The notes: a model not told the origin generated them from the sequence alone. A DNA stretch of 64,000 bases from a virus (IMGVR_UViG_3300029874_000006:10779-74778), one strand, 5' to 3'. Shown: positions 6,001 to 44,421, counted from the first letter of the stretch. Made by a program: numbers and translations.

Positions 6001-9000
6001 CATTGATTAGAAGACTGGAGAAGAAATCCATTTAGATTCTCCATTTACCTTTTACTTAGATAACCTTAATTATAACTTTGTAAATTTAAATGCAAATTGC
6101 TCAGAAGCTGAACTATTAAATTTATTAGATGCAGCCAGAAGTAGCAAATCTAAAAAGGCTAATAATTTTGTAAAGAGACTTGCTAAAATAGGTAATTATG
6201 ATAAATAGGTGGACTATTTAGATAAACTTACTAAGTATGAAGATTTAATAAAAGGAGATACTAAAAATCCAGCATATTTAGCCTTACAAAAGGAATCTAG
6301 ATAGATATGGACTTCTTTTATGAAATATCTTGAAAATGTAGCAGCACGTATCCCTGCTTAGTCTTAGTAGTCTTTCATGGCTCAAAGAGTAGCTATGTTT
6401 GAGAATACAGATACAAATAATGCTTATGTAAGTAAATTCTAGTTCTTCTTACAGGGAAGTGACTTGGATGTTGATGCGGCATCTATACAAACATTTGATA
6501 TAAATAGCAACGGTATTTATGAAACTTATTCTCCGTATGCTAATCTGGATTCACCAGCACTTCTTAAAGTTTCTGAAAAATACTTACCGTTCCCAACTGG
6601 AGATAGGATAAAAGTTGAAGAAATTCATGATCCAACTATAACTACTATGCACTAGTTAATAGCTAAATAGCATTATGATGGTAAAAGATTATTTGGATTA
6701 GCTAATAAACTTAATTAGTAGGATGCTTTATTCTTAATAAACTATACTAGAAATAAGGATGTAATCGTAGAGGTAAATACTAACAGTGAATAGAATATAA
6801 AAGATTTAGCTGATATTCTTGAGTCTATTAATTCAGAGGATTGGTATTCTTACGAAGATGATATATCTAATACTAGAGCCTTAACAACTTTATTATTTCC
6901 AGATAATGAAATGGTATTGGATGTAGATTTATATGATAAAATAGAAAATGGTATAATTGAGGCTATAGATAAACATAATACTTATTTAAAGAATAATTCT
7001 AAAGCTAAGAACGATAGAATATTAAAGAATTTTGCTGTAACTTCACTATTAAATATTATTAAAAATCCAGTTAATCTTAGAGAGGCTTAGTCTTCTGTAG
7101 ATGTTATGACATCAACTGCTAAGAACTTAACTAAGGCTTCTCCTAAAAATGCAGTACAAAAAACCTTTACTCCAGGTAATGTATTTAATAAAATCTAGAG
7201 TATCAATGAGAATATGGTTGGTAAAGATGGTATTGCTATCTGTGCGACAGGTCTTAAATCTTTCTTTGCATTAACTCATATGTATAATACAGTATTAAAT
7301 GATGAAAACACTAGTAATTAGGAAAAAGAAGCTTTAATGTGTAAGGTAACAATTGGAGGTAAAACATATAGAGGACTCGCTAACGTAAATGCTAATTAGG
7401 AGTTAATAGAAAGTTTAGCAGATGCCGAGAATGGTAATTTTACTACTTTACAGAATTACTTATTAGCTCAAGAATGGGAATCTGATGCTGCTAATGAAGC
7501 TTCTGCTTTTCTGTCTCTTTCAACTGATAATGCTAAGGAGTTAGCTTTAGCTAAATTAAATGCAGGTACTCAGACTTTGGGTATGTATTTATATGGGTTA
7601 TCTCTTGGAGTTCCAGTAGACACTTTGTTTAAAATAATGACTTCTCCATTTGCTTTTAGATTAGTAGAATTAGCAAAAGGTGATACATTTAGTGGTAATA
7701 GTGGTTGTGGAACTATAATTGGTGCTCTAGACTACTTACATAAAGACCCACTAGAATAGCTTTCTAGATTTAATACATTTGATTTATCTACATATAACGA
7801 AGGTAAACCAAAAGATTAGAAAATATTAGGTCCAGCTGATTTTGCTTGGTAGTTATTGTAGAATAGTATAGCAGATGATTATAATGAAAAATTACCACTT
7901 CTTAGATAGTTAGCTTATAAAGGTAATGCTATTTAGTTAATTGAAGATTTAAGGTCTAAAGTTAATTAGATTAGTAGTGTTATCTAGACAAAAGATGAAT
8001 TTAATCTCTATTCAACCTTATATAATCAAGCACTAGACTTTATGGAATAGTATATTGCTGATGTCTAGCTAGAATTAGATAGTGGAAGTTACGATACTGT
8101 ATACGGAAAATCCATAATAGCTACAGACTTAGAAACTCTTGCTCTTGGTGCTGATGAATATAAAGAAATAGGTAAAATTCTTAGACTTAATCAAGAAGTA
8201 AATACTAATGCTTTAGATTTACAAAACTAGGTAGCTAATATTGAAGAAGTTATAACTAGAAGACTCAGACAATTAGCTAGAGTTGAAAATAGGGGAAGCT
8301 ACTATAGTCATGGTGCCACAAAAGATGAGTTAAAAAATCCTGATAAATATAAGATTGATTTAGAAAAGTTTTTATATGATGAAGTATACTAGTAGGAAAA
8401 AATAGCGTAGTATGATAGAATTAAACAATCTTATAATGTTTTACGTGTTCTTACTACAGATCCTTAGTATAAAGGTTATATGGAAACCTTATATATGGCT
8501 CATCAAGGTCTGTTAAATAAGTAGTTAAAGTATAGATTTACAGTAGGTAAAATTGCAGATTTTATTTAGAAAAATAAAGTTACTGGTAATTTATAGTAGT
8601 AGGTACTTAAAAATGGTAACAATTATGTTGACTATAAACTAAGACAAAATTGGATGCGAGATAGTAAAATACAGATTACTATTCCAGGCAGTACCGATAA
8701 AATGAAAACTTATGCGTTTATAGGAACCCCAAATAGTTATAGTTAGTTATACTTTGATAAAACTATACAACTGGGCACTGATATGGGAGATGCTAATTTT
8801 AAATTATGGATGGAGCAAACTCTTATTCCTAGACTTAAAGCGGACCCAACATTAAAAGATAATATATTTATATAGCATTTAAGTCCTATAGTTAACTCAA
8901 GAACTAATTTGGGTATGACTGCGGTTTATTATGGATTAAATGGAATAAACATGTTGCCTTAGTCTGACGCTGAAAGAGAAATGTTTGATATACATAAAGA

Positions 9001-9784
9001 CGCTTTTAATAAATTAGCAACCTATGACTTGATTAGGGACGCTAAAGGTCATACTTTTGCCATAAAAGACTTATTTTATCTATATTCTTTAATATGTAAT
9101 AACGGTAAATTTGGTCCTACTTCTCTACATAAAATATTTGAGGATTATCTAGATTCAGGTCTAGCCTAGAGTTATAAACACTTTATAGCAGAAAAAGATA
9201 GAGACTTAGATTTCTACCAGGATTTAGTAAAGACATGTACAGATGAATGGCTTGCACCTATGAGTTCTCCTTATGTTGGAGGTTCTAAAGTACTCAAATA
9301 TAAGGATTAGAACAATGAATAGATTCTACTTTATAAAAAGAAGGAAAAGAAGTCAAAAGGTGGATATGACTATGATGTCGAGTAGGATATGGATGACATC
9401 TTTATGAATGATATGGGATTTGATCCAGAAGGTGGAAAAGACCCTATGGCAGAAATCAACAACTATGTTAAATAGGAATCTAGTGCCCTAGCTAAAAGAG
9501 ACTATAGTTTCTTCTCAAATCCTGAAGTTAAATATAATACATCAGGTTTTCAAGTATTATCAACTAAATCAGAACTAATTAATTAGCATCCTATAACCTA
9601 CGAAGTTAGAGATGGTAAACCTGTATTAGTAAATATAGGGGGTGATGGGGAGATTGCAAAAAAGTTTATGAAATTAATGAAAGATCGTAAGGGAATATTA
9701 CCTACTAAGTAGATTCTTGGAACAGATGGATTTACTGCAGTAATTAATGAAGAATAGATTGAATCAGAATTAAATAGTATAATA
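2..9784 (+). CDS. Giant virion/late protein, 5'-partial (>=3261 aa), translated with in-frame TAG read as sense (probably Gln)
   Basis: Frame 2 is open from nt 2 to TAA at 9782-9784. Every interruption seen on manual codon-by-codon reading is TAG (~85 of them); no TAA/TGA in frame. All frame-2 ORF-track fragments (1097, 2264, 3386, 4610, 6464, 7577, 8981) lie in this frame and end at TAG. Codon usage is coherent throughout. Confidence 0.7.
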
Positions 9785-9884
9785 AATTGTGGATAATTGT
9801 TTAATTAAAGATTTAGAATATCGGACTAAGCTATCTTAGTCTGGTATTCCTGAATCTATATTTTATCCATTTTGCAATGGATTT

Positions 9885-10844
9885 ATGAATAAGTATGGGA
9901 GATTACCTAATCTAGATGAAATTCCAAATGTTGATTCTTCTCAACATATAATTAATAAACTGCATCTAGATGGTAATAGCTCAACATCTATAGATAATAT
10001 CATGTCTTCTACTAATACATCAAGTATTGAAGAAGCTAATGTTAGTTTAAATGATACCTATAAAGATAAAGATATAAATATAATTCCTTTATATAAAGAA
10101 GCTTTAGTTGACATAAAAGATAGACCTTCCGAATATAAAACAATAGAATAGGAAAAACATAAAGTAGATAGAAATCCTAATATGCAGGGAGTATTTAATT
10201 AGTTATTTAATAAGTTAGAGAAATAGTATGGAGTACAATTACATACTATTTCAGATAAAGAACTGGCTAGTGATGAATGGTAGGGAATACCTGAAATTTA
10301 GACAGCTAATGCTTTTATTTATAATGGAGATATATATATAAATACAGACCATGCAAAAGCCGATGCTCCTATACATGAAATGACTCATATGTTATTAGGT
10401 TCTATTAGATTTAAAAATCCTGATCTTTATTATGGAATTGTACAACAAGCCTAGAATTTTCCAACATTTAATTAGTTTATAGAACAAAACCCAAATAGAG
10501 CTATAAATGATAATATGGAAGAATTATTTGTTACAGAAATGTCTAAATATCTAGCAGGGGAATCTAGCATTATTGAATAGTTAGATGAAACCGTTATTAA
10601 TGAGTTACATTATAACATGAAGAGACTATTAGATACTGCACTTATGGGTTAGTATAGTGTAAAAAGTATTCCTGATTCTAAGTTATATAGAATGTCTTTA
10701 GCTGATTTAGTAGAAACTGTAAATTCCCAGATGTTAGAAACAAGTTTTTATGGAAGCCTAGATGACGCTGCTTTGCATAGAGTATTAGCTAATACTAAGT
10801 CAGATTTAATGAAAAAAGGTGATTTAAGAGAAGATTGTGTATGA
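9885..10844 (+). CDS. HExxH (HEMTH) zincin-like putative metallopeptidase, 319 aa, TAG-recoded
   Basis: ATG at 9885 (frame 3), ~10 internal TAGs, ends at TGA 10842-10844. Motif ...DAPIHEMTHMLLG... Stop overlaps the next gene's ATG (ATGA coupling). Confidence 0.55.
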
Positions 10845-13800
10845 AATGTATTTATAGTTATAAAGGAAAACAGTTTTAGTCCATACAATAGTTAGATGAT
10901 TTTCTATTAGAAAAACAAATATATGAAAGTAAATATGGAGATTTAGTATTCTCTATGACTGAAAAATAGTTGTCTGCTTAGAATAGAATTGATAGCATCA
11001 ATAAAGAAGCAGAGGAACTAAATAAAAAATATGCTGAAGCTAAGAAAAACGCGTCATTTATAGACTCAGAAGAAATATTAAAAATGACTCGTCCTTATGT
11101 AGGTGTAAGTGAGTTTTTAATGGATTAGAGAAATGATGAAGGAGAACTTTGGGTGCCTACATTTACTACCGAGTATTGGGCTAAACAATACTTAAATTGG
11201 AGTTAGGGAATTTACTCAAAAGACGAAAAAGATGCATTTTTTGATGGTGATGATTCTAAAGTATAGCCTGTAGAATTAGGAAATCAGGGGGATTGGCGTA
11301 AAGCGGATGGCTCTCTAAAGGATGATTTTGGAACTATTGAATAGAATAACTTCCGTAAAATAATGGAAGATAAGTGGAAACACTAGGCTAAGTATGGTGA
11401 TGATATTCATGCCATTATGCAGAGTTATTTTGCTAGAATAGGCGAAGATTCTGATGGAAATCCTAAGTATCGATATGAATTATGGGAAGGAGATCAAGGA
11501 GCTATGCATTTAGCTAAGAGTATTAAATATATGCGTAATAAAGGAATTATTACTGATGAAATGACTGATGCTAAAATTAATAGTATATTAGAAATAGCTA
11601 GAAATTTAAGAGATTAGTTATAGAGTTAGTATGGCAAAAAATGTATATTTTATCCTGAAATTACTGTTAGTGCCAAATTGAATCATGAATATGAAGGTAG
11701 AGACGATTTAAGTGTATTAGGTCGTCTAGACTTATTAGTTATTGATGAAGATGGTATTCCTCATATTATGGATTACAAAACTTCTCCTAAAAATTACGAT
11801 GACTTTGTCGAAGCTAAGAAACTTACATTTACTTACTAGTTAAGTACCTATGAAAGAATGCTTAGGAGACATGGTTTTAATACTACAGCCACAAGCTTAA
11901 ATATTATACCACTTAAACTAAATAACTTTAGAAAAGAGAATGGTAAATGGACTTACGATGATGTAGTACCTGGTGGTAATTTACTAGAATCAATAACTGA
12001 TAGAGCCAATAAAGATTACATAGCTAATAATCTTGATGAATACATAGAAGCTCCATTATTATTAGATGGGGATTCTAGTAAGATTACAGAGAATGTAACT
12101 GATTTAATGAAAACTTGTTTTCCTGAACATGGTAATGTAGCCACTGATGAATAGATAAAAAAGATGATTGATGGCTAGGGAGGTTTCCATGAAAATAAGG
12201 AAGCGGGTTCTTTGGAGTTTAAGCCCAAGGGATGGACTAAGACTATATCGGTAAAGTAGAAGGAAGGGGCAGAAGCTGAATTATTTAATAAGGTTAAGAA
12301 ATTCTTTACAGGCTAGAGAGAACGTAGTTTAAAGAGAACTTAGGAAATTAAGAGAGCACTTAAACAAGCACAAGCTGAAGACACTAGATAGATTTAGTTA
12401 CCTAATTCTATGAGTGATTGGACTAAAACAAGGCTATCTAAATATTGTAGTAAATCTTGGGAAGTAATGGAAGGTCATGCACAAGATGTTGCTGAGCAAT
12501 TTGGTATGATATTTTTATATAACAAAGCTAATGATTTAGTAGAGGTAGTTAAAATTAGTTCTGCAGATTTATCTTTTTAGCATTCTTGGGGAAAAGGTAG
12601 ATAGAATATTATTGGGGCAAAGGAAGCTGATTTGGGAGAAAATTCCAAGTCAGACAGTTTGATTATTAAAGCTACTAATGGTAACATAGAGCTTATGGAA
12701 GCCATGGCAGTTTTAAATAATATTCAGTTTAATAAGTCTATTTAGTTAGGAAACATAAGTGTTCTTAATCCGGTATTTGGTTAGGGAGCTGAAACTAATT
12801 CTAATAAAGAGCTGCTTTATAACTGGAGAAAACTTAGAAAAACCTTTAACATGGATGGGGAAGATTAGTTTAAATAGGATGGTACTATTAAATTATTGTC
12901 TTTAGCTGAAAGAGCCTATCTGGAGTATGCTGATATAATGGATAGAGTTAATGACAGGTGGCAAGCTCAAGAATTTAGTAAGTTTAAACCTGCTATGACT
13001 GAGTTACAAAGTTCCTTACAACCTAATAATGTAGAAGAAAGTCTTGAAGCTCTTAATTAGCTTAAAACCAAATTGGAGAAAGACTTTGGAATGAATAAGG
13101 ATATTTTAACCAGGGGAGAAAATAAGGGTAAAAGTATATATTCTGAAGTATAGAATTATGACTAGCAATATACTAAGTAGATGTACCAAATAACTCTTAG
13201 AGCCATTGCTGAACTTAGCGGTTTTGATATTAGACAGGAAACAAAAGCACACAGTTCTTTCTTAGTCTTAGAAAATGGTATGTCTGGAAATATGATAGAT
13301 AACCCAGGTAACTTTGGTAATAGACTTCTTAATTAGGTAACTTAGTTAGCTCTTGATGGTTATTAGAATACTCGAGATATGTCAATTAAAAGACTTAATG
13401 CACTATCTGAAAAAGTACGAGAGCTAAAAAGAGGTGAAAACTATGGGGTTATTAGTGAGTATGGATTTGGTAATTAGGCTTCTCTCTATAATGGTATGAC
13501 TTATTATGATACTGATGGTGACTTTAAATTTAAAAATCCTTGGAAAGATAATTCCCTACCTGAACATAAAAAAGAGTTTTTAAAATGGGCATTAACCGAA
13601 ATAGCTAAAAATAAACATCCTGATTGGACTCCCGAAGTTATTAAAGATAAAATAGAAGCAAATGATCCAGATTTCTTTTAGGTTCCTTTAATAAGGGCAG
13701 ATGCCGCATCTAAAATTAATGCAGACGGATGGTTAGGTTGGTTAAAAAGTAAAATGAGACCTTTAATTAGCAAAGATAATGGAGCAACTTTTAAAGAGAG

Positions 13801-15673
13801 AATTCAAAATACTTTAAAAGATATACAATCTAAATATTTATCTGATGAAATAGATTAGTAGCAAAGTATTGACGGTGAAGTATTTAAAGTAATAAATACT
13901 ATGGATTAGGGAAGTGGTCCTGGCAGATTAGACTTAATTAAACATCTACAAGGAAAATACGGATCTAATTGTTTTGAAACGGATATAGAAAAAATATTAG
14001 GTGCTCATATGATGGCATATGCTACTCAACAAGCCATGGAAGATAGAATGCCTTTAATTAAAGCAGCTTATATATCCTTAGCAGTAATGGGTAATAACTA
14101 GGGGGTAGACTATTCTTCTGATGAGAAATATATTAAAGAATATGTTCAAAATAAAATAAATAAATTAGCAATAGATAATCCTTAGTTAAGACATTTAAGG
14201 AGTGCCACTGGAATGTTACAAAAAAGTGCTTCTTGGATGGCATTAGCTTTTTCACCTTTACAAATGTCTTATTAGAGTCTGGAAGGTGTTTGGAAGGCTG
14301 CTAAATTAGTTATAACTAAACCAGATGGTAAAGAAACATTTAGTTTTTCTAATATGCGTAAGGCTATGGGTATTGTATATAAAGAATTGTTTAATTATAG
14401 TGAAACAAATTCTGTAATAGAGGGTTGTAACGCTCTTTATGGTATAAACGATATGGATGCTGCCTCATTTGCCCAAAACAATAGTACTAATAAGCATGGT
14501 CTGTTTAATTTCTTTGACAGAATTGCATATTATTGGTCTTCTCGTCCCGATTTCTATAATAGAATGTCAATATTCACAGCATAGATGCTTGAAGATGGTA
14601 GTTATGAAGCTCATTCAGTAGATGCCAATGGTAACTTAATATACAATATTAAAAAGGATAAGAGATTTGAAGCATTATTTAATAAACCAAAGGGTTCTCC
14701 TGAATATAATAAAGCAAAAGCCTTATTCTTAGCCACTGCTTAGTAGTTAGTGAGGGAAAACGCTAGAAATGCCGATGGTTCATTATACACCATAGATTTA
14801 GATAATCCAAATTTACCTAAAGCCTACTCTAATAAAGAGTCTGAATCTATGAAAGCTATTGGGGATACCATGTATGGATATTACGATAGTTCTAAGAAAT
14901 CATTATGGCAATCTACATTCTTAGGAGGCCTTATGATGCAAATGCAAACATATTGGTCTGGTAAAAAGAATTAGTATCTTGCTCCTGGAGGTATTAAAGC
15001 ACAGGGTAAATGGGTCTAGATGGTAAGTCCTAATGGTAAAAAGTGCTATTATTCTAAAAATGAAAATGGAGATATTGATAACTCCTCAATGCCTGTAGAA
15101 GAGGGAGATCCTAGAGCTAGTGAAGTACCCTTTATGCAATGGAAGGGTAGATTTGAAGAAGGCGCTTTTATAACCTTATATGATGTACTTAAAAGAACTA
15201 TAGGACATAAGGGAAATCTTAAAGCTGCTTGGAAAGAGAAGTTAGATGGAACTGACGAAGACTTATAGAAACTTTATAAGTAGAACATGAAGTTGATAGT
15301 TAGTGACTTACTCGGTATGTTACTTATTGGTTCTTTACTAGGCGGATTATTAGAAGATTTAGCTGATGAAGAAATTAAAAAGGCTAAAAAATCTGCACAG
15401 ATTGGAGATGCTATGGCTGCAACAGCCTTAAGTCTAATAGCTAAGACTGTAAGAAATTCAGCTCTAGATTTTAACATGATAGACTCTTTGTTTGGCTTTG
15501 TAGGGGATTGGAATCCATTCTCTCTTAGTTATGCAGCTAATTAGCTAAGTAATGGTTGGAGTCTTATAACTGGAGATAAAAATTGGGAATAGACTCTATG
15601 CAGTGCCTTCTCTGCAGCACGCTAGATGAGACCAATACTTAATTGCATTAATTAGTCTTTACAAGAGGATTAA
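10841..15673 (+). CDS. Giant virion/late protein (1610 aa) with RecB/Cas4-like PD-(D/E)xK motif, TAG-recoded
   Basis: Frame 2 opens after TAA at 10826-10828; ATG at 10841 overlaps the upstream TGA. Frame open to TAA at 15671-15673 with dozens of TAGs. ORF-track fragments 11417, 11858, 13496, 14354, 14750, 15020, 15287 are all in this frame. Motif LGRLDLLVIDEDGIPHIMDYKTSPK near 11700-11790. Confidence 0.6.
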
Positions 15674-25388: not shown

Positions 25389-25715
25389 TTAGTGAACCCA
25401 ATGGTCATTTATATCTATATCTGCTCCTAAAAATACATTAGGACAGAATGGTTTACCTCCGGCTATCATACAATCAATCAACACTTTACCCACTTGTTCT
25501 TTAATTGCTGCTGGACACTCCAAGTTGAATTCATCATGAGCTGGTACACACATCTTTACCTTATCTATTAGCTTATGATCCACAATCCAATTAAATAGTT
25601 TAATAGAAGATAGTTTAAAGCACATTGCTCCTCTATTTTGTATCAATGTTTGGACTATTTCATTATCCCATAGGGATATTGGGCGCTTATAGGATATTAT
25701 TGCTTCAATACTCAA
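25389..25715 (-). CDS. DNA polymerase I (family A) C-terminal fragment, palm motif C to C-terminus
   Basis: NRGAMCFKLSS (QGSAAD-like), CVPAHDEFNLE (motif C, VHDE), C-terminal ...INDHWVH (Pol I-type end). No ATG: the ORF opens after TAA and the earliest start-like codon is TTG. Confidence 0.65.
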   Translation of the reverse strand: MSIEAIISYKRPISLWDNEIVQTLIQNRGAMCFKLSSIKLFNWIVDHKLIDKVKMCVPAHDEFNLECPAAIKEQVGKVLIDCMIAGGKPFCPNVFLGADIDINDHWVH

Positions 25716-25830
25716 TCCTTAGTCTCTGAACCTTCTTACTACTTTTACTTGATTCATAAGCTTGGCTGCAGATTATTCTAATATTAGACCTTCCTGCAAT
25801 TCACCCAATTTACAGTAGATAATTACTTAT

Positions 25831-27780
25831 CTACGCCGCATACATTTTACGGTAATTAATAGATTGTTTCTCAGAAGCTGCTTTACGCTGCATATAGTGT
25901 CTTACTTCTTGTACAATCTCATCCTGTGGATTGCGTTTTCTTGCATTCTGATAATATTCCCAAAATCCGGGTTCCTGCATCTTGTTATGAGTCTCTTTTA
26001 ACTCCTCGGCATCATAAATATGTGCTCTATGTCCAGTAAGGGGATTAAGTAATATATAACCATCTCTCATAACAGCTGCTCTGCAATAATCTTGATATCT
26101 TTTTATTCCTGGAAAACCTTCCATAAAATTATCATAAATTTCTTTTGCTTCTTCTACAGGAATACCATCATTTTTGGAGATAGTATTATAATCTCCTCCG
26201 TAGTTTATCGCGAATTCAATAGATTTAGCTTTTTGTCTCCAATTATGATAGAGCTTCTTTATATCCTCAATCTTAGTGTCTCTTGGAATTATATTAGGAT
26301 AACTCATATAGGCTACCAAAGAATGGACATCACCACAACCATGTTCAAATAGGTCTATCATCTTCTCATCTTTAGAAACAGATGCAATAATACGAGATTC
26401 CTGACTTTGATAATCAGCAGATAACCAAGCATTACCTTCTTCAGATGTAAAACATGCTCTAGTTTCTGGATCATTCGGTAAGTTTTGAATGTTCAGTTTC
26501 CAAATACCGCCACCAGAGCTAACTCTTGCAGTATCTGTACCTATAGAATGAAAATCTGCATGTATTCTACCTGTTTTAGGATTAATTGCATTTAGCCAGT
26601 TTTGTCCATAGGTAGATACGACTTTGGCAGCTTCTTGATATTCCAAAAATATAGGAATAATTGGAAAGTCATTCTTTTGAGGTTTTAAAACATTTGCTTC
26701 AATAGACTTCTTTTTCTGTTTAGTCTTTTTGTCAAATGTCTCCACATTAATTCCAAGTAACTCAAATAGAGGTATTACTTGTTTTTGACTACTCCAATTT
26801 ATCACACATTTAGGTTCAGTATCAAATCCTGTAAATAAGTCACCTTGAGTATCAATTCGTGTAAACTGATTCTTAATTACTTTCTTATAAGCATCAACCT
26901 TACCATCAGGGGTTTGTAAGTCTTCCTGAGGGAACCTTTTATATCCATCTTTAATTAGTCTCTTTACCTCAGCAGGATAATCTGCAGAATACTTTGGATA
27001 TTTAAGTTCAGGATATTGAATATCATAGCCATTATGAGGATTTTCTTTATCCCAAGCTACTACCCAAGCATTTAATTCTGAAATAGCCTTATCAAGTTTA
27101 GCTTGATCTTTAGTCATTTTAGCTTTCCACTTCGTAATATCAAGATGAACTCCACAATATTTAAAGTAAGCAAGGGATTTAACAAATTCACATTCCAGCT
27201 CTACTGCGAGTTTCATGCCTTGTTTTTCTATTTCAATATCTTGTTTTTCTTTTATATCCTCTATATACGTAACATCTCCTGCAGCATAAATAACGACCTC
27301 AGTAGTTAAACCATCATTAACAATTTTACCTCGAACAGTTTTATCAATGTTAATATTTAAGTAATTCCATGCAGCTGCTTTCAAGCTCTTTTCACGCATT
27401 TGAGCTGGATACCCTAGATATAAGAGCTGTTCTACTATCATACCATCCCAAATATGCTTAGGATAGATACCCTGAACATATAAAAAGGTTAAATCAAACA
27501 TTAAATTCCATCCCAGAAACAATCTGTCTGATTCTAGGTAGTTTTTAACTATTTGCTTTTCTCTTAGAGTTAGAGTAGTCCAATCAATAACTACTTGATT
27601 ATCTTTATTACCTAACTGTATAGTCAATAAAGCTTTGGTATGACAGTCGAGACCCTTAGTTTCTGAATCTAACTGACATAGTTTGAGCGGCAACAGAACA
27701 GACATTGCCTGCTCCATTGTCGCTTCTATATATATATCCGTTTGAAATAAACTTTTATTATGACTAACTAAATAAATCAT
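25831..27780 (-). CDS. DNA polymerase I (family A) N-terminal part: 3'-5' exonuclease plus palm motifs A and B
   Basis: Exo I CQLDSETKGLD; Exo II YAAGDVTY; motif A LSADYQSQESRIIA; motif B RQKAKSIEFAINYGG. Lacks motif C. Terminates at TAG 25831-25833. Confidence 0.85.
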   Translation of the reverse strand: MIYLVSHNKSLFQTDIYIEATMEQAMSVLLPLKLCQLDSETKGLDCHTKALLTIQLGNKDNQVVIDWTTLTLREKQIVKNYLESDRLFLGWNLMFDLTFLYVQGIYPKHIWDGMIVEQLLYLGYPAQMREKSLKAAAWNYLNINIDKTVRGKIVNDGLTTEVVIYAAGDVTYIEDIKEKQDIEIEKQGMKLAVELECEFVKSLAYFKYCGVHLDITKWKAKMTKDQAKLDKAISELNAWVVAWDKENPHNGYDIQYPELKYPKYSADYPAEVKRLIKDGYKRFPQEDLQTPDGKVDAYKKVIKNQFTRIDTQGDLFTGFDTEPKCVINWSSQKQVIPLFELLGINVETFDKKTKQKKKSIEANVLKPQKNDFPIIPIFLEYQEAAKVVSTYGQNWLNAINPKTGRIHADFHSIGTDTARVSSGGGIWKLNIQNLPNDPETRACFTSEEGNAWLSADYQSQESRIIASVSKDEKMIDLFEHGCGDVHSLVAYMSYPNIIPRDTKIEDIKKLYHNWRQKAKSIEFAINYGGDYNTISKNDGIPVEEAKEIYDNFMEGFPGIKRYQDYCRAAVMRDGYILLNPLTGHRAHIYDAEELKETHNKMQEPGFWEYYQNARKRNPQDEIVQEVRHYMQRKAASEKQSINYRKMYAA

Positions 27781-28040: not shown

Positions 28041-28360
28041 GCTAAATAGTCATTTAACCACTCTATTCCATATTCATCTATTACCTTTTCATCTATCTTT
28101 ATAGCTTCAAGTTCTATATCCTCAAGCTGCTGTTCATACCAATCTTCAAATTGATCCTCATCATCCTCGTCTATATCTGGACTATCTAAATAGCTAAATG
28201 AGTTAACACACTCGTCTCTTAATTCATTTGCATAACTCAGTTCTAATGTAGGATCTTCTTCACTTTCAATTACTTCATTTATTGAAGCATCACAAGCAAC
28301 TGGATACTTAGCAATAACTAGCCACCAATTCCCATTAAGAAATTCTTCCTTAGATATCAT
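28037..28360 (-). CDS. Hypothetical acidic protein (107 aa)
   Basis: ORF. Confidence 0.35.
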   Translation of the reverse strand: MISKEEFLNGNWWLVIAKYPVACDASINEVIESEEDPTLELSYANELRDECVNSFSYLDSPDIDEDDEDQFEDWYEQQLEDIELEAIKIDEKVIDEYGIEWLNDYLA

Positions 28361-29205
28361 TATATTAATTTAGATAACTGTAAATTGCATCTTTTTCTTA
28401 TTTTATCTAAAGCTTTTTCTTTTATTTGTCTAACTCTTTCAACACCAATGCCAAACATATCTCCTACTTCTTGCTTGGACATAGGATTCATTCCTATGCC
28501 AAATAACATAATAATAATATCATGTTCTCTGACAGGAAGTATATCTAGACATTTGCATAGTTCCTTATTAATAAAGCTTTTATTAACTTGTTCGTCAAGA
28601 GAAGGCTCTCCGTCCGGTATCACATCACATACTTGACTATTTTCCTCATCCCCACCAATAAAGTCATCGACACTAACTAATCTGTTAGAAAATTGTGCCA
28701 AATAGTCTATTTGCTTTTCAGGGATATTAGTTAAAGTATGTAATTCATTTGTAGTTGGATTTCTACCATTCTTTTTAATAAACTCATTAGTAGCTCTTAA
28801 TATTTGAATTACTTTTAAGTGTTGAGTTACTGGCAATCTAATCTCACGACCATACCAATATATAGTAGTATAAATACATTGTTTTATCCACCAAGCAGAA
28901 TAATTAAGAAATTTAACACCCCTAGTTGGGTCAAATTTATTTACAGATTTACATAAACCTTCCAATCCTGAGGATATTAAATCCATAAGGGGAATACCTC
29001 TATTTTGAAACTGCTTAGCTATAGTTACTACAAATCTTAAATTAGAAGTAATTACTTTTTCTCTAGCCTTTTCATCCCCATTTTGAGCTTCAACAATTAG
29101 CTTGTTTATTTCTTCATTATCTAATATTTTATATTTAGATATATCTCGAAAATAACTCTGAAGTAGAGAGTCAGACTTGTCAGAAAAAATAATTCTTTTA
29201 TTCAT
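28360..29205 (-). CDS. Sigma-70 family RNA polymerase sigma factor
   Basis: Region 2: NLRFVVTIAKQFQNRGIPLMDLISSGLEGLCKSVNKFDPTRGVKFLNYSAWWIKQCI. Region 4 HTH: SKQEVGDMFGIGVERVRQIKEKALDKIRKR. Confidence 0.8.
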   Translation of the reverse strand: MNKRIIFSDKSDSLLQSYFRDISKYKILDNEEINKLIVEAQNGDEKAREKVITSNLRFVVTIAKQFQNRGIPLMDLISSGLEGLCKSVNKFDPTRGVKFLNYSAWWIKQCIYTTIYWYGREIRLPVTQHLKVIQILRATNEFIKKNGRNPTTNELHTLTNIPEKQIDYLAQFSNRLVSVDDFIGGDEENSQVCDVIPDGEPSLDEQVNKSFINKELCKCLDILPVREHDIIIMLFGIGMNPMSKQEVGDMFGIGVERVRQIKEKALDKIRKRCNLQLSKLI

Positions 29206-29461
29206 TAATTGTGGACTTAGCTAGTGCTTTAGCTTCATCTAATTGTTTTTCTTCTTGGGTTGGTTGATTAAGACCTATACGTATACTAAGAATAGTGAGA
29301 TAAGCTTCCATTGCCTTGAGTTGAGCTATCAATAAATCTTTATTAAGATTATCTATAGAAGTCTTATCTATTTTATTAATTAAGAAATCTCTAAGCTTTG
29401 TAGTTTTAGTTTCCAATTCTTTGTACTCTGTAAGTAGTCTGTCAAACACGCTCTTTTCCAT
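29198..29461 (-). CDS. Hypothetical coiled-coil protein (87 aa)
   Basis: ORF. Confidence 0.35.
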   Translation of the reverse strand: MEKSVFDRLLTEYKELETKTTKLRDFLINKIDKTSIDNLNKDLLIAQLKAMEAYLTILSIRIGLNQPTQEEKQLDEAKALAKSTINE

Positions 29462-35970: not shown

Positions 35971-36238
35971 TACAATAACGATTTAAAATTTCAGAAATAT
36001 TATCTAAAGTGCATTCATTTGATTCACTATAAAAAGGAATCTCATGATTATTATCTTTAAATAAAGCAAATGGAGTTAATCTAGCACTATAACCACCTTT
36101 TAATCGGTATGCTTTCTTTTTCTCTAGATAATGAGACTCATTATAAGTTTTTATAGTGACACTATAAATAGTAGCTAAGTCCTCCAATTGTTTTTTAAAA
36201 TCTAAAATATCATTATTATAAGCTAATTCTAAAGTCAT
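35948..36238 (-). CDS. Hypothetical protein (96 aa)
   Basis: ORF. Confidence 0.35.
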   Translation of the reverse strand: MTLELAYNNDILDFKKQLEDLATIYSVTIKTYNESHYLEKKKAYRLKGGYSARLTPFALFKDNNHEIPFYSESNECTLDNISEILNRYCNVESTCN

Positions 36239-36714
36239 TAATTACTTTTATGCCAAAAATAACTAGTTATATCTTTAGTTATTGATCTTCCACAAGTATT
36301 ATCAATTTCCAACATTACTTGATTTGTATTAGGATTATCTAATCCTCCTCTTTCTTCTATATAAGGACCTAATTTCACATAATCAAAATACTGTAAATCA
36401 ATTTCTGGAGCTAAATGATTTCTACCACTATACCAACCAACTTTTAAGTTATACTCTGTTTTAATATATTGTGCAAGAGCATTAACACTTTTTGGCTCTA
36501 TGTCTCCACCCATAAACCCTACACAAGTAATACCTTTATTTTCTGTAATTAACTTATGTAAAGTTAATTCTCCTAAAGGTTCTCCTATGTCCTCAGCAAG
36601 ATAAGATGAATGGCAACCAGGACAACGGCAAGGACATTGACTAATATTGATACACAAACTAATTTCGTTAGGAAACTCTGAGAAAGTAACCATCGAATTG
36701 ACATATTTAATCAT
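36238..36714 (-). CDS. nrdG: Anaerobic ribonucleotide reductase activating protein (radical-SAM, NrdG-like)
   Basis: Cys cluster QCPCRCPGCHS, then VGFMGGD; small T4-NrdG-like size. Confidence 0.65.
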   Translation of the reverse strand: MIKYVNSMVTFSEFPNEISLCINISQCPCRCPGCHSSYLAEDIGEPLGELTLHKLITENKGITCVGFMGGDIEPKSVNALAQYIKTEYNLKVGWYSGRNHLAPEIDLQYFDYVKLGPYIEERGGLDNPNTNQVMLEIDNTCGRSITKDITSYFWHKSN

Positions 36715-39702: not shown

Positions 39703-39969
39703 TTAATAATTTATTTCAGTAATACTGCCACAATATTCAACTCTAAAATCATCTACTTTCACATCTTCTTCATCCCAAAGCCATTCTTTTTGTTCCTTTA
39801 AAGACAAAGATTTAAATTTCTCAAAATCCTCATCATTTAACTCCATTTCTAAATGACCCATTCGTAAATAACCTTGAACATAATCAAGGTCTCCAAAAAT
39901 TGTATGCATATTAAAGATTTGGTTTATATGTAAAGCTTCTATCTCCACTCTTATACTTACGTATTGCAA
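39703..39969 (-). CDS. Hypothetical protein (88 aa)
   Basis: ORF. Confidence 0.35.
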   Translation of the reverse strand: MQYVSIRVEIEALHINQIFNMHTIFGDLDYVQGYLRMGHLEMELNDEDFEKFKSLSLKEQKEWLWDEEDVKVDDFRVEYCGSITEINY

Positions 39970-40017
39970 ATTCTAGCTGTCTAGGATTACTCCAATTGTC
40001 TACACACACTAAATCCT

Positions 40018-40788
40018 TTATACCCTCTCTTTCGAGATATTTAGTTTATTAATAACATAATCTTTTATTTCAGCTTTTCGTTCATCTGAAATTTTATCAA
40101 TATAAGATTTATATACTGAATCATTAGCTTCATTTCTATACGATTTTAACATATATATTTCACAAAGATACCTTTGATATACTGCTTCTTCTTTTAATGT
40201 ATATTCTTTCATATAATATCTTTGTTTCATATAAGTAAAATCAGTCTTCCATTTGTTACTTTTTTTACAAAAGGAAACTCCTCGTATTCCGGAAGTATTA
40301 GTAGATTTCTTTTGCAGATTTAACATATTTTCTTGTACAGTTACTTCTCTAAGATTAGATTTCCTATTGTCACGAGTGTCACCACTTATATGATCCACTT
40401 GTTTATCAGTAGGCAATACCAGTCTATGAAAGTATATACGCTCTTTTTTCTAATTTCCTGTAAATAAATATGGTTTATCATTTTTATAAACAGTTCTCCA
40501 TTTATGACCCTTTAATTTCGAAATGTCATTTACATCTAGAATAAATGTTTCCATAACATTTCCATAAGAATCATAAGTATCTATTTCTGCAAAATTATCT
40601 TTTAATCTAATTTCATTATCATCAAATACACCTCTTGGATTAGAGTCTTTAAATTCTCCATAATTTTTAAACTGCCTTGCGTGTTTAAGACAGAGTGTTT
40701 TTCCAGCTAAGTTATTAAAACTCACTTGTTTAAATTTTGATGATACACCACATACTTCACAAAAGCGTTCTTCAGTTATTTTTCTCAT
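40018..40788 (-). CDS. HNH-AP2 homing endonuclease paralog carrying one in-frame TAG (recoded Gln, or a nonsense pseudogene)
   Basis: ORF-track pieces 40450..40788 and 40018..40416 are in the same frame, separated only by TAG (at 40450-40452 on the + strand). Across the TAG, ...KPYLFTGN-TAG-KKERIYFHRLVL...VDHISGDTRDNRKSNLREVTVQENMLN aligns with the intact paralog ...KKYFVHRFLMG...VDHINGDSLDNRKSNLRICTQQEN. Confidence 0.55.
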
Positions 40789-41075
40789 ATTGTCAAAATT
40801 GTGTTAATAATAAGGGAGTGGACTATACCATCAACCGATTAGGTTGCGCATTGGTAGTCTCTGAGACCCATAAATTTTTATCTATGTCAAGTATGTACAC
40901 GACTTGTATATACCACAATAGTATTAACATAAATTAACAATTTATATGTCTGCTGATTGCCCAATCCTAAGACTTGTTCATTTTTGAATTAAATTCAAAT
41001 ATACTTAGGCTCTAAGGGGTTTCCAGCATATTCTGCGTTTTCATCATAACATTACTGTTATAAGGGGCGTTTATT

Positions 41076-41486
41076 TCACCCAATAATTCTAGTATAATAT
41101 TTGATGTGTCTACAATGACAAATAGGACACTCATCAATAGGGGCATTTACTACATGTCCGCATTCTCTACATTGAGACATTGGGATATTAAATGTGAAAT
41201 AACTAGTACCCTCATCCTTAGCTACATCTAACAGATGTAAATACTGTTGTTTACTTAAATGAGCATCAAGATTTGCATGAAGTGCCTGACCTCCATCACA
41301 ATACTGAGCTACTCCTCTACCATGAAGCTTAAATTTATCAAGAATAGAGGTCTCATCCCATGGATTATAGAAATAACAATTATACAGATTCTGATTTTCA
41401 GGTACTGCATAACCATCCTTCTTATCCCAATTATAGAGTTTTACACCTAATCCTTCCCCCGATTCTATTACACCCCTTCTAAAGAA
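41076..41486 (-). CDS. nrdD: nrdD 3' exon: C-terminal zinc-ribbon and glycyl-radical region of anaerobic RNR (no start codon)
   Basis: Frame open from just after the HNH gene: ...GGQALHANLDAHL...DEGTSYFTFNIPMSQCRECGH...CPICHC...KYYTRIIG then TGA. No ATG until deep inside. Exon boundary approximate. Confidence 0.6.
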   Translation of the reverse strand, partial: FFRRGVIESGEGLGVKLYNWDKKDGYAVPENQNLYNCYFYNPWDETSILDKFKLHGRGVAQYCDGGQALHANLDAHLSKQQYLHLLDVAKDEGTSYFTFNIPMSQCRECGHVVNAPIDECPICHCRHIKYYTRIIG

Positions 41487-42442
41487 TTAATATATTTATG
41501 TAATTCTTTAATCGGTGAAGGGTGATTTAATACATAATACAGGTCTTTATTTGGACCGTATTCACCACAAAGTTCTTGCTCTTTTTTAAGCCTAGCAAGT
41601 AAGGCTTCTTCAGCTGTGTTATAATATCCCAAATAGATAGTTTTGTAATTATGACAAATTCGTGCAGTCCATTTAGATTTATCAGTTCCATTATAGTTTT
41701 TAATAAAGGAAATTCCAACAATTCTATTAGTTTTTCTTCCATTTTTAGAATTTTCTTGTTGGGTACAGATTCTAAGATTAGATTTTCTATTATCTAGGGA
41801 ATCGCCATTTATATGGTCTACAACTTCGTTAATAGAATATTTACTATCTTTTAATCCCATTAAAAATCTATGTACAAAATATTTTTTACCAGTACCCTTT
41901 TCTGAAACTAAAGCATACCATTTGTCTGTTTGATGACGTGCATAAAGTTTAAAGTCTTTTAGTTTGTCATAATCTTCCTTATCTATTTTAGTTCTAGCTA
42001 CTTCATTAGAGTTTTTGTCTTTTAGTATACATTCATAATAATCACCACAATCAATCCATTCATTCTCCTCATATATAGTATTAAATGTTTCTCCGTGTCG
42101 AGTTATTTGTAAATAATGTCTTCTACAATAAGGTTTTCCCTCAAATGAAGCCATTTTTAAATCGCCACATACGCAACATTTAAGTTCATCTTCGGATTTT
42201 TTTCTTTGTCTAGGAGTAGAATCAGTAATTTTATGATATTTATCTAATTGATTGTAATGCTTTTCACATAAACAATACTCATTATACCTTCTTAGTTTTA
42301 CATAATCACGCCCACAGCCACAAACATAACATTTAGCATCTTTAGGCATAACTATTCTTTTTAATTTTTGTTTTTCAAGATTTTCTAATTCAGGAAATTC
42401 GCTCATAATTATTTTAAATTGATTATATGCAATTATAAGCAT
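41468..42442 (-). CDS. HNH-AP2 homing endonuclease (intron-encoded)
   Basis: N-terminal CxxC repeats; HNH VDHINGDSLDNRKSNLRICTQQENSKN; AP2-like VGISFIK...WTARICHNYKTIYLGYYNTAEEA. Confidence 0.8.
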   Translation of the reverse strand: MLIIAYNQFKIIMSEFPELENLEKQKLKRIVMPKDAKCYVCGCGRDYVKLRRYNEYCLCEKHYNQLDKYHKITDSTPRQRKKSEDELKCCVCGDLKMASFEGKPYCRRHYLQITRHGETFNTIYEENEWIDCGDYYECILKDKNSNEVARTKIDKEDYDKLKDFKLYARHQTDKWYALVSEKGTGKKYFVHRFLMGLKDSKYSINEVVDHINGDSLDNRKSNLRICTQQENSKNGRKTNRIVGISFIKNYNGTDKSKWTARICHNYKTIYLGYYNTAEEALLARLKKEQELCGEYGPNKDLYYVLNHPSPIKELHKYINSLEGV

Positions 42443-42680
42443 TCCAAAATTAAAACAAAATTTACACTTTGTGATTTTGTATTAAACGAATTGATATTTC
42501 TATCAATTTCTTAATGTTACCATTAAGTCTCGACTATTGCATATTTAGTACTATGTACTAAATCCTCTTTACTTAGTCTGTCACGCTGCACACAGTATTA
42601 ATCAATACCATTGCTTGCGCCTCGTTGTCCTATATATAGGTGAATATAGGAGTTTCGAGTCAATCAAAAGAGGTTTTACA
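41468..42680 (-). mobile_element. Putative group I intron (ORF in the 3' peripheral region) interrupting nrdD
   Basis: ~230-nt ORF-free segment just 3' of the nrdD exon-1 stop holds P7-like elements ACAGACUAAG (R-like) and AAUAGUCGAG (S-like) on the minus strand (+ coordinates ~42574-42582 and ~42531-42540), then the HNH ORF, then the nrdD continuation with no start codon. Same arrangement as T4 nrdD/sunY with I-TevII. Confidence 0.5.
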
Positions 42681-44421
42681 TCCCCAGAGATTTAGGGATG
42701 GCTTCACTATTAAACAAGAATGGTCTTTTACTATCGTGGATAGAGTTTTTCTTATTTTCTTCTTTAACAGTACCAAATACTAATTTAAGAAAATCTTTAT
42801 ATTCCTTATTATTAGATACCGATAGTCCCAAGAATTGTGCAGCTTCACAATAACCTATCAATCCAATGGTAGAATACAATTTACGCATATAAATATATCC
42901 TGCATTACAATCAGAAAACATTTTAGCGTCTTCCATTTCATAAAGCATTGTCTTATATGCAATATGATACTTATATACTCTTTTAAGAATATTAATAAGA
43001 TAATTTTTTAAGTCTGAAAAACTCTCAGAAAACCACTCAAAAGGAAAGGCACACTTACCATCAACAATATGATCCTCCCAATTTTTCCATGTATGTATAT
43101 AATCCTGAACAATTCTATTAATATTAAGAGTAATTACATTACAAGAACCAGTCATAACTCCAGTCATACCTGTAGTAGAACTAAAGGTATTATCAGACAT
43201 TTCATTTAGGACTCTACAACATGATGCCAAAGATGTAGGATTATCACTAGTATAGCAGAAGAAACTTCCACCTTTAGCCCACTCTTCGGCACATAACTCT
43301 TTGTATTCATGATCAAGATACTCTTTACCATTATGTACAAGAGCCATAGTAGTTACTGGAAATGTGAGAGGTTTAATTAATCTGATTTCTCTTAAAAGTT
43401 GCATAAAGATTCTCTGCAACTTATCTATAGCATTCCATTCAGGTTGTGTTCCATCAGGATAATAAAATTCTCCAAAGAGTGATTTAAAATATACTTTATC
43501 ATAAAAAGATACATTAGAGAAAGGTGAATTGTAGCTTCTATTGCCTGCAGGTTGATTAACTCCATAAATAAACTGCTTCATACCCTTTCGGATATAATGT
43601 CCAACAGTATACTGATGCAGAAAGTGGGAATTAGTTACAACTTCATCCACCTTATCATACCATACAGGTCCAAACTCTTGAATTACATAATAATTAAGAG
43701 CTATAAAATAATCTCCAAGAGCAACCGCTCCCTTACACTGAGAACTAAACAAAAACACAGCATTAGTTACCTGACCACTAAAAGACTGAATATCATTTGG
43801 AGCACTAGGAGTAACTCCATCAATATTACCTACACCCTTAAGCATTAATGGGTACAATGTAACTGCTTTACAATAAGGTTTAAGTACCGGAGTACTTGCC
43901 TCATCATGAGTATAAATAATATGATTTTCCAAATCCTTAATATACTGTCTTCCAAGTTCTTGACCTGGATACAATTTATTAAGTTTATCTTTCATTCGTT
44001 GTCTTTGGATAATTCTATTAGTTACTTTATATACTTCACCCTCAAGATTAGCTACATTCTTAGAAGCAACATTAGCATTAGCATCTGTTTCTGAAGAAGT
44101 AGATGCATTTACACCAGAATCTTTATAAGTGTCCATGTAATTAAGTCTACTTCTAATAAATCTAGCTTTCTTGTGTTCTTCTCTATAAATGGAATAAGCT
44201 CTGGCTACATCAAAATATTCGTAATTATATAAAGTCTCTTCTACTTCATCTTGAATTTCTTCTACAGTAATATTATCCCAGAATCTCATTTCTGAAACCA
44301 TATCCCGAATAACATTTTCAACAGAAGTATAACCGCAAGCTTTAAATGCCTTAGTTAAAGCATTAAATATTTTATCTGCATTAAACTCTTCCTTTGTTCC
44401 GTCTCTTTTTATAATGACCAT
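42676..44421 (-). CDS. nrdD: Anaerobic ribonucleoside-triphosphate reductase NrdD, 5' exon (ATP-cone plus catalytic barrel; lacks glycyl-radical C-terminus)
   Basis: N-terminal ATP-cone VIIKRDGTKEEFNADKI; 581 aa of class III RNR-like sequence ending ...AIPKSLGM without the C-terminal Zn-ribbon/Gly-radical region, which is found downstream at 41076..41486. Confidence 0.8.
   Translation of the reverse strand: MVIIKRDGTKEEFNADKIFNALTKAFKACGYTSVENVIRDMVSEMRFWDNITVEEIQDEVEETLYNYEYFDVARAYSIYREEHKKARFIRSRLNYMDTYKDSGVNASTSSETDANANVASKNVANLEGEVYKVTNRIIQRQRMKDKLNKLYPGQELGRQYIKDLENHIIYTHDEASTPVLKPYCKAVTLYPLMLKGVGNIDGVTPSAPNDIQSFSGQVTNAVFLFSSQCKGAVALGDYFIALNYYVIQEFGPVWYDKVDEVVTNSHFLHQYTVGHYIRKGMKQFIYGVNQPAGNRSYNSPFSNVSFYDKVYFKSLFGEFYYPDGTQPEWNAIDKLQRIFMQLLREIRLIKPLTFPVTTMALVHNGKEYLDHEYKELCAEEWAKGGSFFCYTSDNPTSLASCCRVLNEMSDNTFSSTTGMTGVMTGSCNVITLNINRIVQDYIHTWKNWEDHIVDGKCAFPFEWFSESFSDLKNYLINILKRVYKYHIAYKTMLYEMEDAKMFSDCNAGYIYMRKLYSTIGLIGYCEAAQFLGLSVSNNKEYKDFLKLVFGTVKEENKKNSIHDSKRPFLFNSEAIPKSLGM

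Follow-up and report, generated by a model that had tools for sequence, protein, structure and literature searches.

The nrdD gene of a gut crAss-like phage: a probable three-exon structure with two mobile group I introns that carry HNH endonuclease genes

The gene nrdD, encoding the class III (anaerobic) ribonucleotide reductase, is found on the minus strand of a 64,000-nucleotide stretch of viral DNA (IMGVR_UViG_3300029874_000006:10779-74778), referred to here as the window, in which all positions are counted from the first nucleotide. An open reading frame (ORF) of 581 amino acids (aa), 44421..42676 (-), contains the ATP-cone and the NrdD barrel and ends with ..EAIPKSLGM. It is followed, after ~230 nt, by an ORF of 324 aa, 42442..41468 (-), with an HNH domain (Pfam HNH_3, 34.3 bits against a cut-off of 24.8), and by a frame without start codon, 41486..41076 (-), which encodes ..YFTFN..CRECGH..CPICHC..YYTRIIG before its stop. 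The original prediction, made from the sequence alone, had read the outer two frames as parts of one nrdD separated by a ~1.2-kb group I intron with an HNH gene. ORF and Pfam data upheld the frames, and the insert proved to be a group I intron; the interruption is not single, however, a second group I intron with an HNH gene and a third exon having been overlooked. The window very probably derives from a gut crAss-like phage whose nrdD consists of three exons split by two unrelated mobile group I introns. The features of the locus are as follows:

nrdD exon 1, 42694..44421 (-): 1728 nt, 576 codons, ATP-cone and most of the NrdD barrel; based on the ORF, the empty-site alleles and Pfam.
Intron 1, 41460..42693 (-): group I, 1234 nt, begins with AAAUCUCUGGGGAU and ends with ..AAUAGAAUCG; omega-G at 41460.
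HNH endonuclease gene 1, 41468..42442 (-): 324 aa, in the 3' periphery of intron 1, after P9.1.
nrdD exon 2, 41078..41459 (-): 382 nt, GEGLGVK.., Zn-ribbon CRECGH..CPICHC, ..YYTRIIG and the first base of the Tyr codon; lacks a start codon.
Intron 2, 40015..41077 (-): group I, 1063 nt, begins with GAAAUAAACGCCCC and ends with ..GGGUAUAAAGG; omega-G at 40015.
HNH endonuclease gene 2, 40018..40788 (-): 256 codons, in the P9 loop of intron 2.
nrdD exon 3, 39911..40014 (-): 104 nt including the stop, finishes the Tyr codon and encodes (Y)LVCVDNWSNPRQLEFAIRKYKSGDRSFTYKPNL.
Ligated junction 1 (predicted), 42694 to 41459 (-): GCCAUCCCU joined to GGGGAAGG; also given as ...GAAGCCATCCCT joined to GGGGAAGGATTA...
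Ligated junction 2 (predicted), 41078 to 40014 (-): AUUAUUGGGU joined to AUUUAGUG; also given as ...AGAATTATTGGGT joined to ATTTAGTGTGTG...

The limits of the inserts were obtained from intron-less alleles. When IMG/VR was scanned with the protein of exon 2, 80 loci were obtained (loci are given below as L and a number). An uninterrupted NrdD is encoded in L004, L007-L011, L018 and L043, with 93-99% identity to the NrdD of the window, and in L019, with 82%. The exact spliced-junction strings were present in two loci only, owing to synonymous differences that flank the sites; blastn alignments were used instead, which covered six of the empty alleles at the DNA level (L004, L009, L010, L018, L043 and L019). 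Five of these (L009, L010, L043, L018 and L019) are contiguous across 42694/41459, the alignment of L004 ending 1 nt short, at 42695, and all six are contiguous across the second junction, at 41078-41080/40009-40014. The boundary positions are unambiguous, because each boundary has different bases on its two sides, and the junction sequences fix both boundaries exactly. Each insert is preceded by U and ends in G, a result set by the empty sites without any use of RNA structure. The alignment to uninterrupted nrdD that had been proposed for locating the splice sites thus placed the junctions at 42694/41459 and 41078/40014, and the exon limits of the original prediction, 42676 and 41486, were replaced by 42694 (18 nt upstream of the ORF stop) and 41459.

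The first junction, SEAIP/GEGLGVK, came from an alignment with the NrdD of IAS virus, which is uninterrupted and 725 aa long; this crAss-like phage is the closest relative with annotation (60% aa identity). For the second, L001 (GenBank MT835492) was informative: its divergent, intein-containing nrdD likewise stops, at ..DRIIG, and is then followed by a 308-nt ORF-less copy of the insert, 90-93% identical. The two copies differ by a 1-nt indel just upstream of the sole 3' boundary that gives in-frame G-Y-L.. in both, and because this indel exposed the frame the 3' splice site was placed after ..AAAGG. Intron 2 is thus flanked by the radical Gly codon (GGG) and U on its 5' side and by the AU of the next Tyr codon on its 3' side. 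The missing tail of NrdD was found in a short frame containing ..VDNWSNPRQLEFAIRKY.. downstream of HNH gene 2. The C-terminus had been assigned to 41486..41076, which holds as far as the radical Gly (RIIG before the stop); the last 34 codons (YLVCVDNWSNPRQLEFAIRKYKSGDRSFTYKPNL and the stop) belong to exon 3, 40014..39911, behind intron 2. In the intron-less alleles the tail RIIGYLVCVDNWSNPRQLEFAIRKYKSGDRSFTYKPNL is encoded contiguously after RIIG and equals the predicted spliced tail letter for letter. A reading of exon 3 as G-Y-K-G-F-S.. was rejected, as it meets a stop and does not share the frame of the conserved NWS..RQLE..R tail. When GenBank phages were searched by megablast and blastn, only IAS virus (exon), MT835492 (intron 2) and the Lak-B phages (intron 1) matched.

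Joining of the three exons yields 2214 nt encoding 737 aa with no internal stop. The product matches Pfam NRDD (PF13597) over profile positions 11-560 of 562 (E=1.4e-72) and also the ATP-cone, and it has the Zn-ribbon cysteines CRECGH..CPICHC and a C-terminal RIIGY corresponding to the RxxGY glycyl-radical motif. Its Gly703 was aligned by MAFFT with Gly580 of T4 NrdD, the radical residue of that enzyme.

Both inserts have the hallmarks of group I introns, i.e., a P1 with a U.G wobble and a guide strand that covaries with the exon between family members and insertion sites, omega-G, a covarying P3-P8 core with a P3/P7 pseudoknot and a P7 of consensus sequence. The elements of intron 1 are:

Ribozyme core, 42489..42699 (-): from P1 (with exon bases) to P9.1.
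P1: AUCCCU 42699-42694 (exon) with GGGGAU 42685-42680 (-).
P10: UCUCU 42690-42686 with GGGGA 41459-41455 (-).
P3 to P6a: P3 CCUCUUU/AAAGAGG, P4 CUCG/CGAG, P5, P6 GCGC/GCGU, P6a.
P7, 42580-42574 with 42536-42531 (-): C-A(bulge)-GACUA with UAGUC-G.
P8: AUUUAGUAC with GUACUAAAU.
P9 and P9.1: P9 with a GUAA loop (L9), P9.1 with a GAAA loop (L9.1).

The last base of exon 1 is the U that pairs with G in P1, and the core lacks P2 as well as P7.1/P7.2. The P7-like strands noticed originally, ACAGACUAAG (~42581-42572) and AAUAGUCGAG (~42538-42529), are indeed the two strands of P7, whose closing pair C-G becomes G-C in relatives. A pattern scan of IMG/VR found the J8/7-P7'-P9 signature in 30 loci, and the core occurs in Lak-B megaphages at 69% identity. 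An alignment of 11 distinct members of the intron 1 family was evaluated against the structure drawn by hand (P3, P4, P5, P6, P6a, P7, P8, P9, P9.1 and the P3/P7 crossing). Pairs were formed in 96.5% of the cells, and 26 of 53 pairs showed compensatory changes on both sides; no shuffle out of 500 attained any of the five measures, and slid partners were 38-46% paired with 4-8 such pairs. P1 covaries with the exon, the combinations being AUCCCU/GGGGAU, GUGCCU/GGGCAC, GUCCCU/GGGGAC, AUGGAU/GUCCAU and AUGGGU/GCCCAU. The ~1.2-kb intron of the original prediction is thereby confirmed, with exact empty-site boundaries, U at position -1, omega-G, P1/P10 and covariation from P3 to P9.1.

Intron 2 has a different core:

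Ribozyme core, 40811..41081 (-): from P1 (with exon bases) to the 5' strand of P9.
P1: GGGU 41081-41078 (exon) with GCCC 41068-41065 (-).
P2, P3 and P4: P2 UUAUAAC/GUUAUGA, P3 CGCA/UGCG, J3/4-P4 GAAUA-UGCUG with CAGCA.
P5 to P6: P5 CCC/GGG, P5a CCUAAG/CUUAGG, P5b, P6 GAC/GUC.
P7 to P9: P7 G-A-GACUA/UAGUC-C, P8 CAACC/GGUUG, P9 5' strand CCCUU.

Its P7-like strands read ..UCAGAGACUACC.. and ..GGUAUAGUCC.., the P7 helices of both introns agree with the consensus AGACUA..AUAGUC of the general Rfam group I model, RF00028, and the closing pair of P7 covaries in the intron 2 family (A-U, G-C, U-A). Pattern scans of IMG/VR gave the P7-P8-P7' signature in more than 119 loci, 53 of which also have J3/4-P4 and P4'. 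In an alignment of 36 family members (structure P3, P4, P5, P5a, P6, P7, P8) 99.6% of the cells were paired and 22 of 32 pairs, with 208 cells, showed compensatory changes; four of the measures were attained by none of 500 shuffles, and the slid controls were 29-46% paired. RF00028 matches two members of this alignment across the same core (L130, 63.3 bits; L193, 48.2 bits), which ties the family to group I independently of the hand-drawn structure. ORF-less homologues occur at the Gly site of L001 (308 nt) and of phage Lak-B1 (L003, ~245 nt); both keep omega-G, and their removal restores in-frame G-YL. Introns of this family are located at Gly/Tyr in at least six NrdD lineages (window/L224, L001/L137, Lak-B1, L172, L155 and L157), and other phage genes also host members.

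In the window, which is the only intron-2-bearing allele with the junction read, the radical Gly codon GGG pairs with the guide GCCC; in most empty alleles (L004-L020 set) this codon is GGU, GGC or GGA. L019 and L020, which are empty of intron 2, also have GGG; an intron may have been lost precisely from them, or these may be potential recipient sites. In comparison with L001, P6 of intron 2 contains a 59-nt insertion (~40874-40932 (-)) flanked by the direct repeat AAUUUAUG. This insertion extends the P6 region, is shared with the near-identical L224 (equal segment length) and does not occur in L001 or Lak.

Genomes at least 96% identical across the locus show every combination of the introns. 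Intron 1 only is present in L013, L014 and L020, intron 2 without intron 1 in L006, and both in L012 and L015, the exons of which are 99.5-99.8% identical to those of the window; the window exons have no frameshifts or stops. L016 and L017 carry copies of intron 1 that lack ~810-855 nt of the ORF. The ORF-less inserts interrupt nrdD in L001 and Lak-B1 (Gly site) and in L016 and L017 (site 1), the frame being restored only on their removal. Such presence/absence polymorphism, together with ORF-less products, fits a standard homing cycle as far as can be judged from the genomes compared, and would make the locus a population snapshot of that cycle with empty sites, ORF-containing introns and ORF-less decay products.

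HNH gene 1 starts ~45 nt past P9.1, and 8 nt separate its stop from the 3' splice site. Its product has N-terminal CxxC..CxxH repeats, the HNH_3 domain (PF13392) and an AP2-like tail, and it matches phrog_99 'HNH endonuclease' (E=3.9e-31); its best sequence match in the PDB was I-HmuI (1u3e), at a marginal E=0.02. In gene 2 the last codons overlap the 3' strand of P9 (GAGGG, 40027-40023) and the stop lies 3 nt before the 3' splice site; HNH_3 scored 37.5 bits (cut-off 24.8) and phrog_99 E=3e-26. The two proteins are paralogous (32% identity, E=1e-20). An 'HNH-AP2' label had been given to the first; its HNH part holds, whereas AP2 (PF00847), although the only Pfam match to the C-terminal regions of both proteins, remained below threshold (16.2 and 19.3 bits vs 33.3) and is not established, and the AP2 protein WRI1 appeared in the PDB search with E=0.28. 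HNH gene 2 contains a single in-frame TAG, at 40452..40450 (-), which is CAG (Gln) in all six other copies (L006, L012, L015, L016, L224 and L084).

Downstream of nrdD the candidate gene for the cognate activase was identified:

NrdG activase, 36238..36714 (-): radical SAM protein with CPCRCPGCHS, on the same strand and ~3.2 kb downstream of nrdD.

A Pfam scan of this ORF gave no match; the ORF matches NCBIfam TIGR02826 (RNR_activ_nrdG3) at 152.6 bits, the cut-off being 151.7, and is 59% identical to the protein adjoining NrdD of IAS virus. A thioredoxin gene lies directly downstream of nrdD. With a full-length domain, the motifs described above and a cognate NrdG, which would be needed for making the glycyl radical on the spliced protein, the NrdD of the window phage is a class III RNR.

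In the mechanism proposed, nrdD would be transcribed as a single precursor in which each intron would fold as a group I ribozyme. External guanosine would attack after the exon-terminal U in P1 (AUCCCU/GGGGAU in intron 1, GGGU/GCCC in intron 2), the freed 3'-OH of the exon would attack after the terminal G of the intron, and the joined exons would form the mRNA for the full 737-aa RNR, whose Gly703 would be converted to the radical by the nearby NrdG. If they act like the characterised HNH enzymes encoded in introns, the HNH proteins would cut intron-less nrdD of co-infecting phages, and repair would copy the intron in (homing). Splicing, endonuclease activity and homing are what we infer from comparisons of this kind, and it is highly likely, in our estimation, that both inserts are group I introns on whose splicing NrdD depends. 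Taken as a whole, the earlier observation is partly confirmed and its interpretation partly supported.

Several points weigh against this conclusion. RF00028 matched neither nrdD intron when the whole window was searched at the gathering threshold, nor any of the intron 1 family members. At E<=10, Rfam searches of 40900-43000 and 39850-41150 gave no group I match, the only hits being at chance level (CRISPR-DR41, TeloSII, SmY, snoRNA/miRNA). The original prediction had stated that it would be refuted by the absence of a group I covariance-model hit together with transcript data for two independent mRNAs or proteins; the former was found on 41400-42700, even at E<=10, and is read as a false negative. 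RF00028 did detect the T4 sunY intron (105 bits) and another intron of the window, in the DNA polymerase gene (81 bits), and we attribute its miss of both nrdD introns to the limited sensitivity of one general model and do not count it against group I. As to the structures themselves, intron 1 has no P2 and P1 of intron 2 is of 4 bp only. The alignments were recruited with exact P7'/P9 or P7/P7' patterns, so that some columns are invariant by construction, and the window copy served as the template for the structures. The percentage paired is thereby inflated in comparison with the slid controls, the compensatory counts being unaffected. Finally, HNH gene 2 may be inactive here unless its TAG is read as Gln.

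Gene fission by free-standing HNH genes, named originally as the alternative, would imply that separately translated NrdD fragments assemble without any RNA splicing. This is the situation in Aeromonas phage Aeh1, where the HNH gene mobE lies between two pieces of nrdA, the fragments are translated separately and there is no intron. The window is unlike Aeh1 in its start-less fragments, in the covarying ribozyme before each HNH gene and in the ORF-less inserts at the same sites. No start codon is available at the 5' end of exon 2 or of exon 3, or close to it, and the two would yield fragments of 127 and 34 codons, the radical Gly and the next Tyr sitting on separate polypeptides; the breaks fall in or between codons exactly where removal restores the frame; other phages have ORF-less inserts of 245-400 nt at these positions; and the sequence upstream of each HNH gene is a strongly covarying group I core. 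In favour of fission are the HNH genes between nrdD fragments, the lack of a match to the general Rfam model at nrdD and one nrdD gap without splicing reads in the Jug phages (PMC12880540). Fission appears very unlikely.

It might also be supposed that the inserts are or were group I introns, one or both of which no longer splice, and that nrdD is a pseudogene in this phage. The premature TAG of HNH gene 2, found in the window only among seven copies, would agree with this, as would the 59-nt insertion in P6 of intron 2 relative to L001 and the ORF-less degenerate derivatives in relatives, which are expected from a cycle of intron invasion and decay. In the window copy, however, the core helices, P1, omega-G and the co-adapted GGG codon are all intact, the exons are 99.5-99.8% identical to those of other intron-bearing genomes and free of frameshifts and stops, and NrdG is intact; the TAG may be read as Gln, since TAG is a sense codon in the late genes of this phage. 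Decay is thus improbable. As for other intervening elements, inteins are known in nrdD of related phages (at the CC motif of L001 and Lak-B1), but both inserts hold stops in the host frame and shift the frame, and therefore cannot be inteins. A group II intron is opposed by the lack of a reverse-transcriptase ORF and of any Rfam group II match, and programmed translational bypass by the length of the inserts, 1.06-1.23 kb, which far exceeds any known bypass; the chance that an element of one of these kinds is present is almost negligible.

The interpretation as spliced group I introns has parallels in known systems. The sunY gene of T4 resembles the window as a phage class III RNR gene with a group I intron, a ribozyme core in the 5' part, a homing-endonuclease ORF in the 3' periphery and NrdG nearby. 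The T4 nrdD(sunY)/I-TevII arrangement, invoked in the original prediction, holds as an analogy; the insertion site, the ribozyme and the endonuclease type differ. With splice candidates enumerated and the junction mapped through a MAFFT alignment, the T4 intron follows residue 180 (after ..UAUGAGU), equivalent to window residue ~286, in contrast to the window sites 576/577 and Gly703/Tyr704. RF00028 recognises the T4 ribozyme with 105 bits and the nrdD introns of the window not at all at E<=10; I-TevII is annotated as GIY-YIG, whereas the endonucleases of the window are HNH_3; and T4 nrdD has one intron instead of two. A tblastn search of T4 nrdD with the window NrdD gave no match at E<=1e-3. 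In the I-HmuI type, from DNA polymerase introns of SPO1/SP82, HNH modules are likewise encoded in phage group I introns, I-HmuI lacking the N-terminal CxxC..CxxH repeats found here.

Among gut phages, the Jug jumbo phages of Bacteroides/Phocaeicola have nrdD in up to four pieces, with group I introns, mostly HNH genes and inteins in the gaps, and splicing of the split gene is backed by metatranscriptome reads across junctions (PMC12880540). They share with the window phage the Bacteroidota gut hosts and the split-nrdD architecture, a likeness observed at the level of architecture; they are of 360-402 kb with introns averaging ~206 nt (PMC12880540), whereas the window is crAss-like and both of its nrdD introns hold a full endonuclease ORF. 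For Delta/Zeta crAss-like phages, the consulted passages of a survey (Yutin et al. 2021) report that late genes read TAG as sense and that the core genes of a genome hold several group I introns, introns having been found via endonuclease protein domains and the MCP, PolB, primase and TerL genes being highlighted (PMC7886860). The window resembles these phages, as they are described there, in its TAG-rich late genes and its three introns in 64 kb, and the phage may be presumed to belong to the Zeta or Delta group. No description of nrdD introns, of where they insert or of how their RNA folds is given in those passages (PMC7886860).

Multi-intron nrdD is thus already documented in gut phages, and the architecture is of a known kind. 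New are the three-exon model, the two defined insertion sites (one at the radical glycine), the two covarying families that Rfam largely misses and the snapshot of the homing cycle. Gene callers would give a truncated 581-aa protein and orphan fragments here, and a standard Rfam scan flags neither intron; with the splice coordinates and the alignments of 11 and 36 sequences, correct annotation becomes possible in the window and in more than 80 related contigs. The known cases in which introns target the best-conserved codons of genes essential to phages grow by two sites; how group I introns and NrdD are understood does not change.

Members of the intron 1 family (L086-L113; L003 3490-3700) were observed at two nrdD sites 12 codons (36 nt) apart. 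The window type lies between P and G of ..E(A/Q/F)(I/V)PG.., the other, in further crAss-like contigs and in Lak-B megaphages, between G and Y of ..WD(K/S)EDGY... The core is constant at both sites and the internal guide sequence is rewritten to fit each exon; the Lak-B1 copy carries a different, smaller HNH protein ORF. The family may be a compact P2-less group I lineage invisible to the general Rfam model, and may have moved between the two sites by rewriting of the internal guide sequence alone. If so, the two sites would document ectopic retargeting in nature, brought about either by reverse splicing or by an endonuclease whose specificity had shifted.

The nrdD gene is a hotspot for insertions. 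It is also interrupted near window residues ~232, ~302, ~402 and ~593 in relatives (L003, L005, L006, L017, L021, L022, L024, L025, L035-L038, L044, L060, L069, L073, L075, L076, L079, L081 and L082), the insertion at ~402 being an intein at the CC motif in L001 and Lak-B1, and four nrdD loci stop elsewhere, at ..HIKY, ..GYLTCVDN, ..KADGY.. and ..GEGLATKLYN. In the Prevotella phage Lak-B1 (L003, MK250020.1 157463-164660), the GenBank record of which is without annotation, nrdD is in at least four pieces, separated by an intein, an intron 1 homologue with an HNH ORF, further ORFs and the ORF-less intron 2 homologue at the Gly site.

In the remainder of the window, three long frames at 2-15673 (+), of 3264, 352 and 1616 codons, are uninterrupted only when TAG is read as sense (98, 10 and 52 in-frame TAGs, respectively), and almost no in-frame TAG is present in the minus-strand replication module (~16-62 kb). 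With TAG as sense, the summed length of ORFs of at least 200 aa rises from 23.6 to 40.2 kb. This pattern fits the TAG-to-Gln recoding of late genes known from crAss-like phages (PMC7886860); a tRNA scan for an amber suppressor found none within the 64-kb window. The TAG of HNH gene 2 may be a 'synonymous' change that limits the full-length endonuclease to the late phase, or a fresh nonsense mutation. In the former case the amber codon could tie expression of the homing endonuclease to the late switch of genetic code. Taken jointly, a retargeted P2-less lineage for intron 1 and, separately, an amber codon that links HNH gene 2 to the late code switch make up a speculative reading to which we would give rather low odds.

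A third group I intron, without ORF, is located at 25633-25859 (-) (RF00028, 81.1 bits, E=4.8e-19) and interrupts a gene for a family-A DNA polymerase. The upstream ORF, 27780..25831 (-), covers DNA_pol_A profile positions 30-288 and a 3'-5' exonuclease domain, and the downstream frame, 25631..25392 (-), covers positions 308-380, the exact junction not being unique from the frame alone. A sub-threshold Rfam match to the nematode spliceosomal RNA SmY at 39870-39931 (-) (27.5 bits against a gathering threshold of 39, E=0.0015) overlaps the end of exon 3 and the start of the next ORF; it is driven by a AAUUUUUGGAG-plus-hairpin motif and is almost certainly due to chance. At 28360-29328 (-), within the otherwise TAG-free module, a frame of 322 codons with four in-frame TAGs (TAG as sense) was observed, with an AGACUA..-type motif near ~28708, and this frame may represent a recoded gene, part of a gene or a further mobile element.

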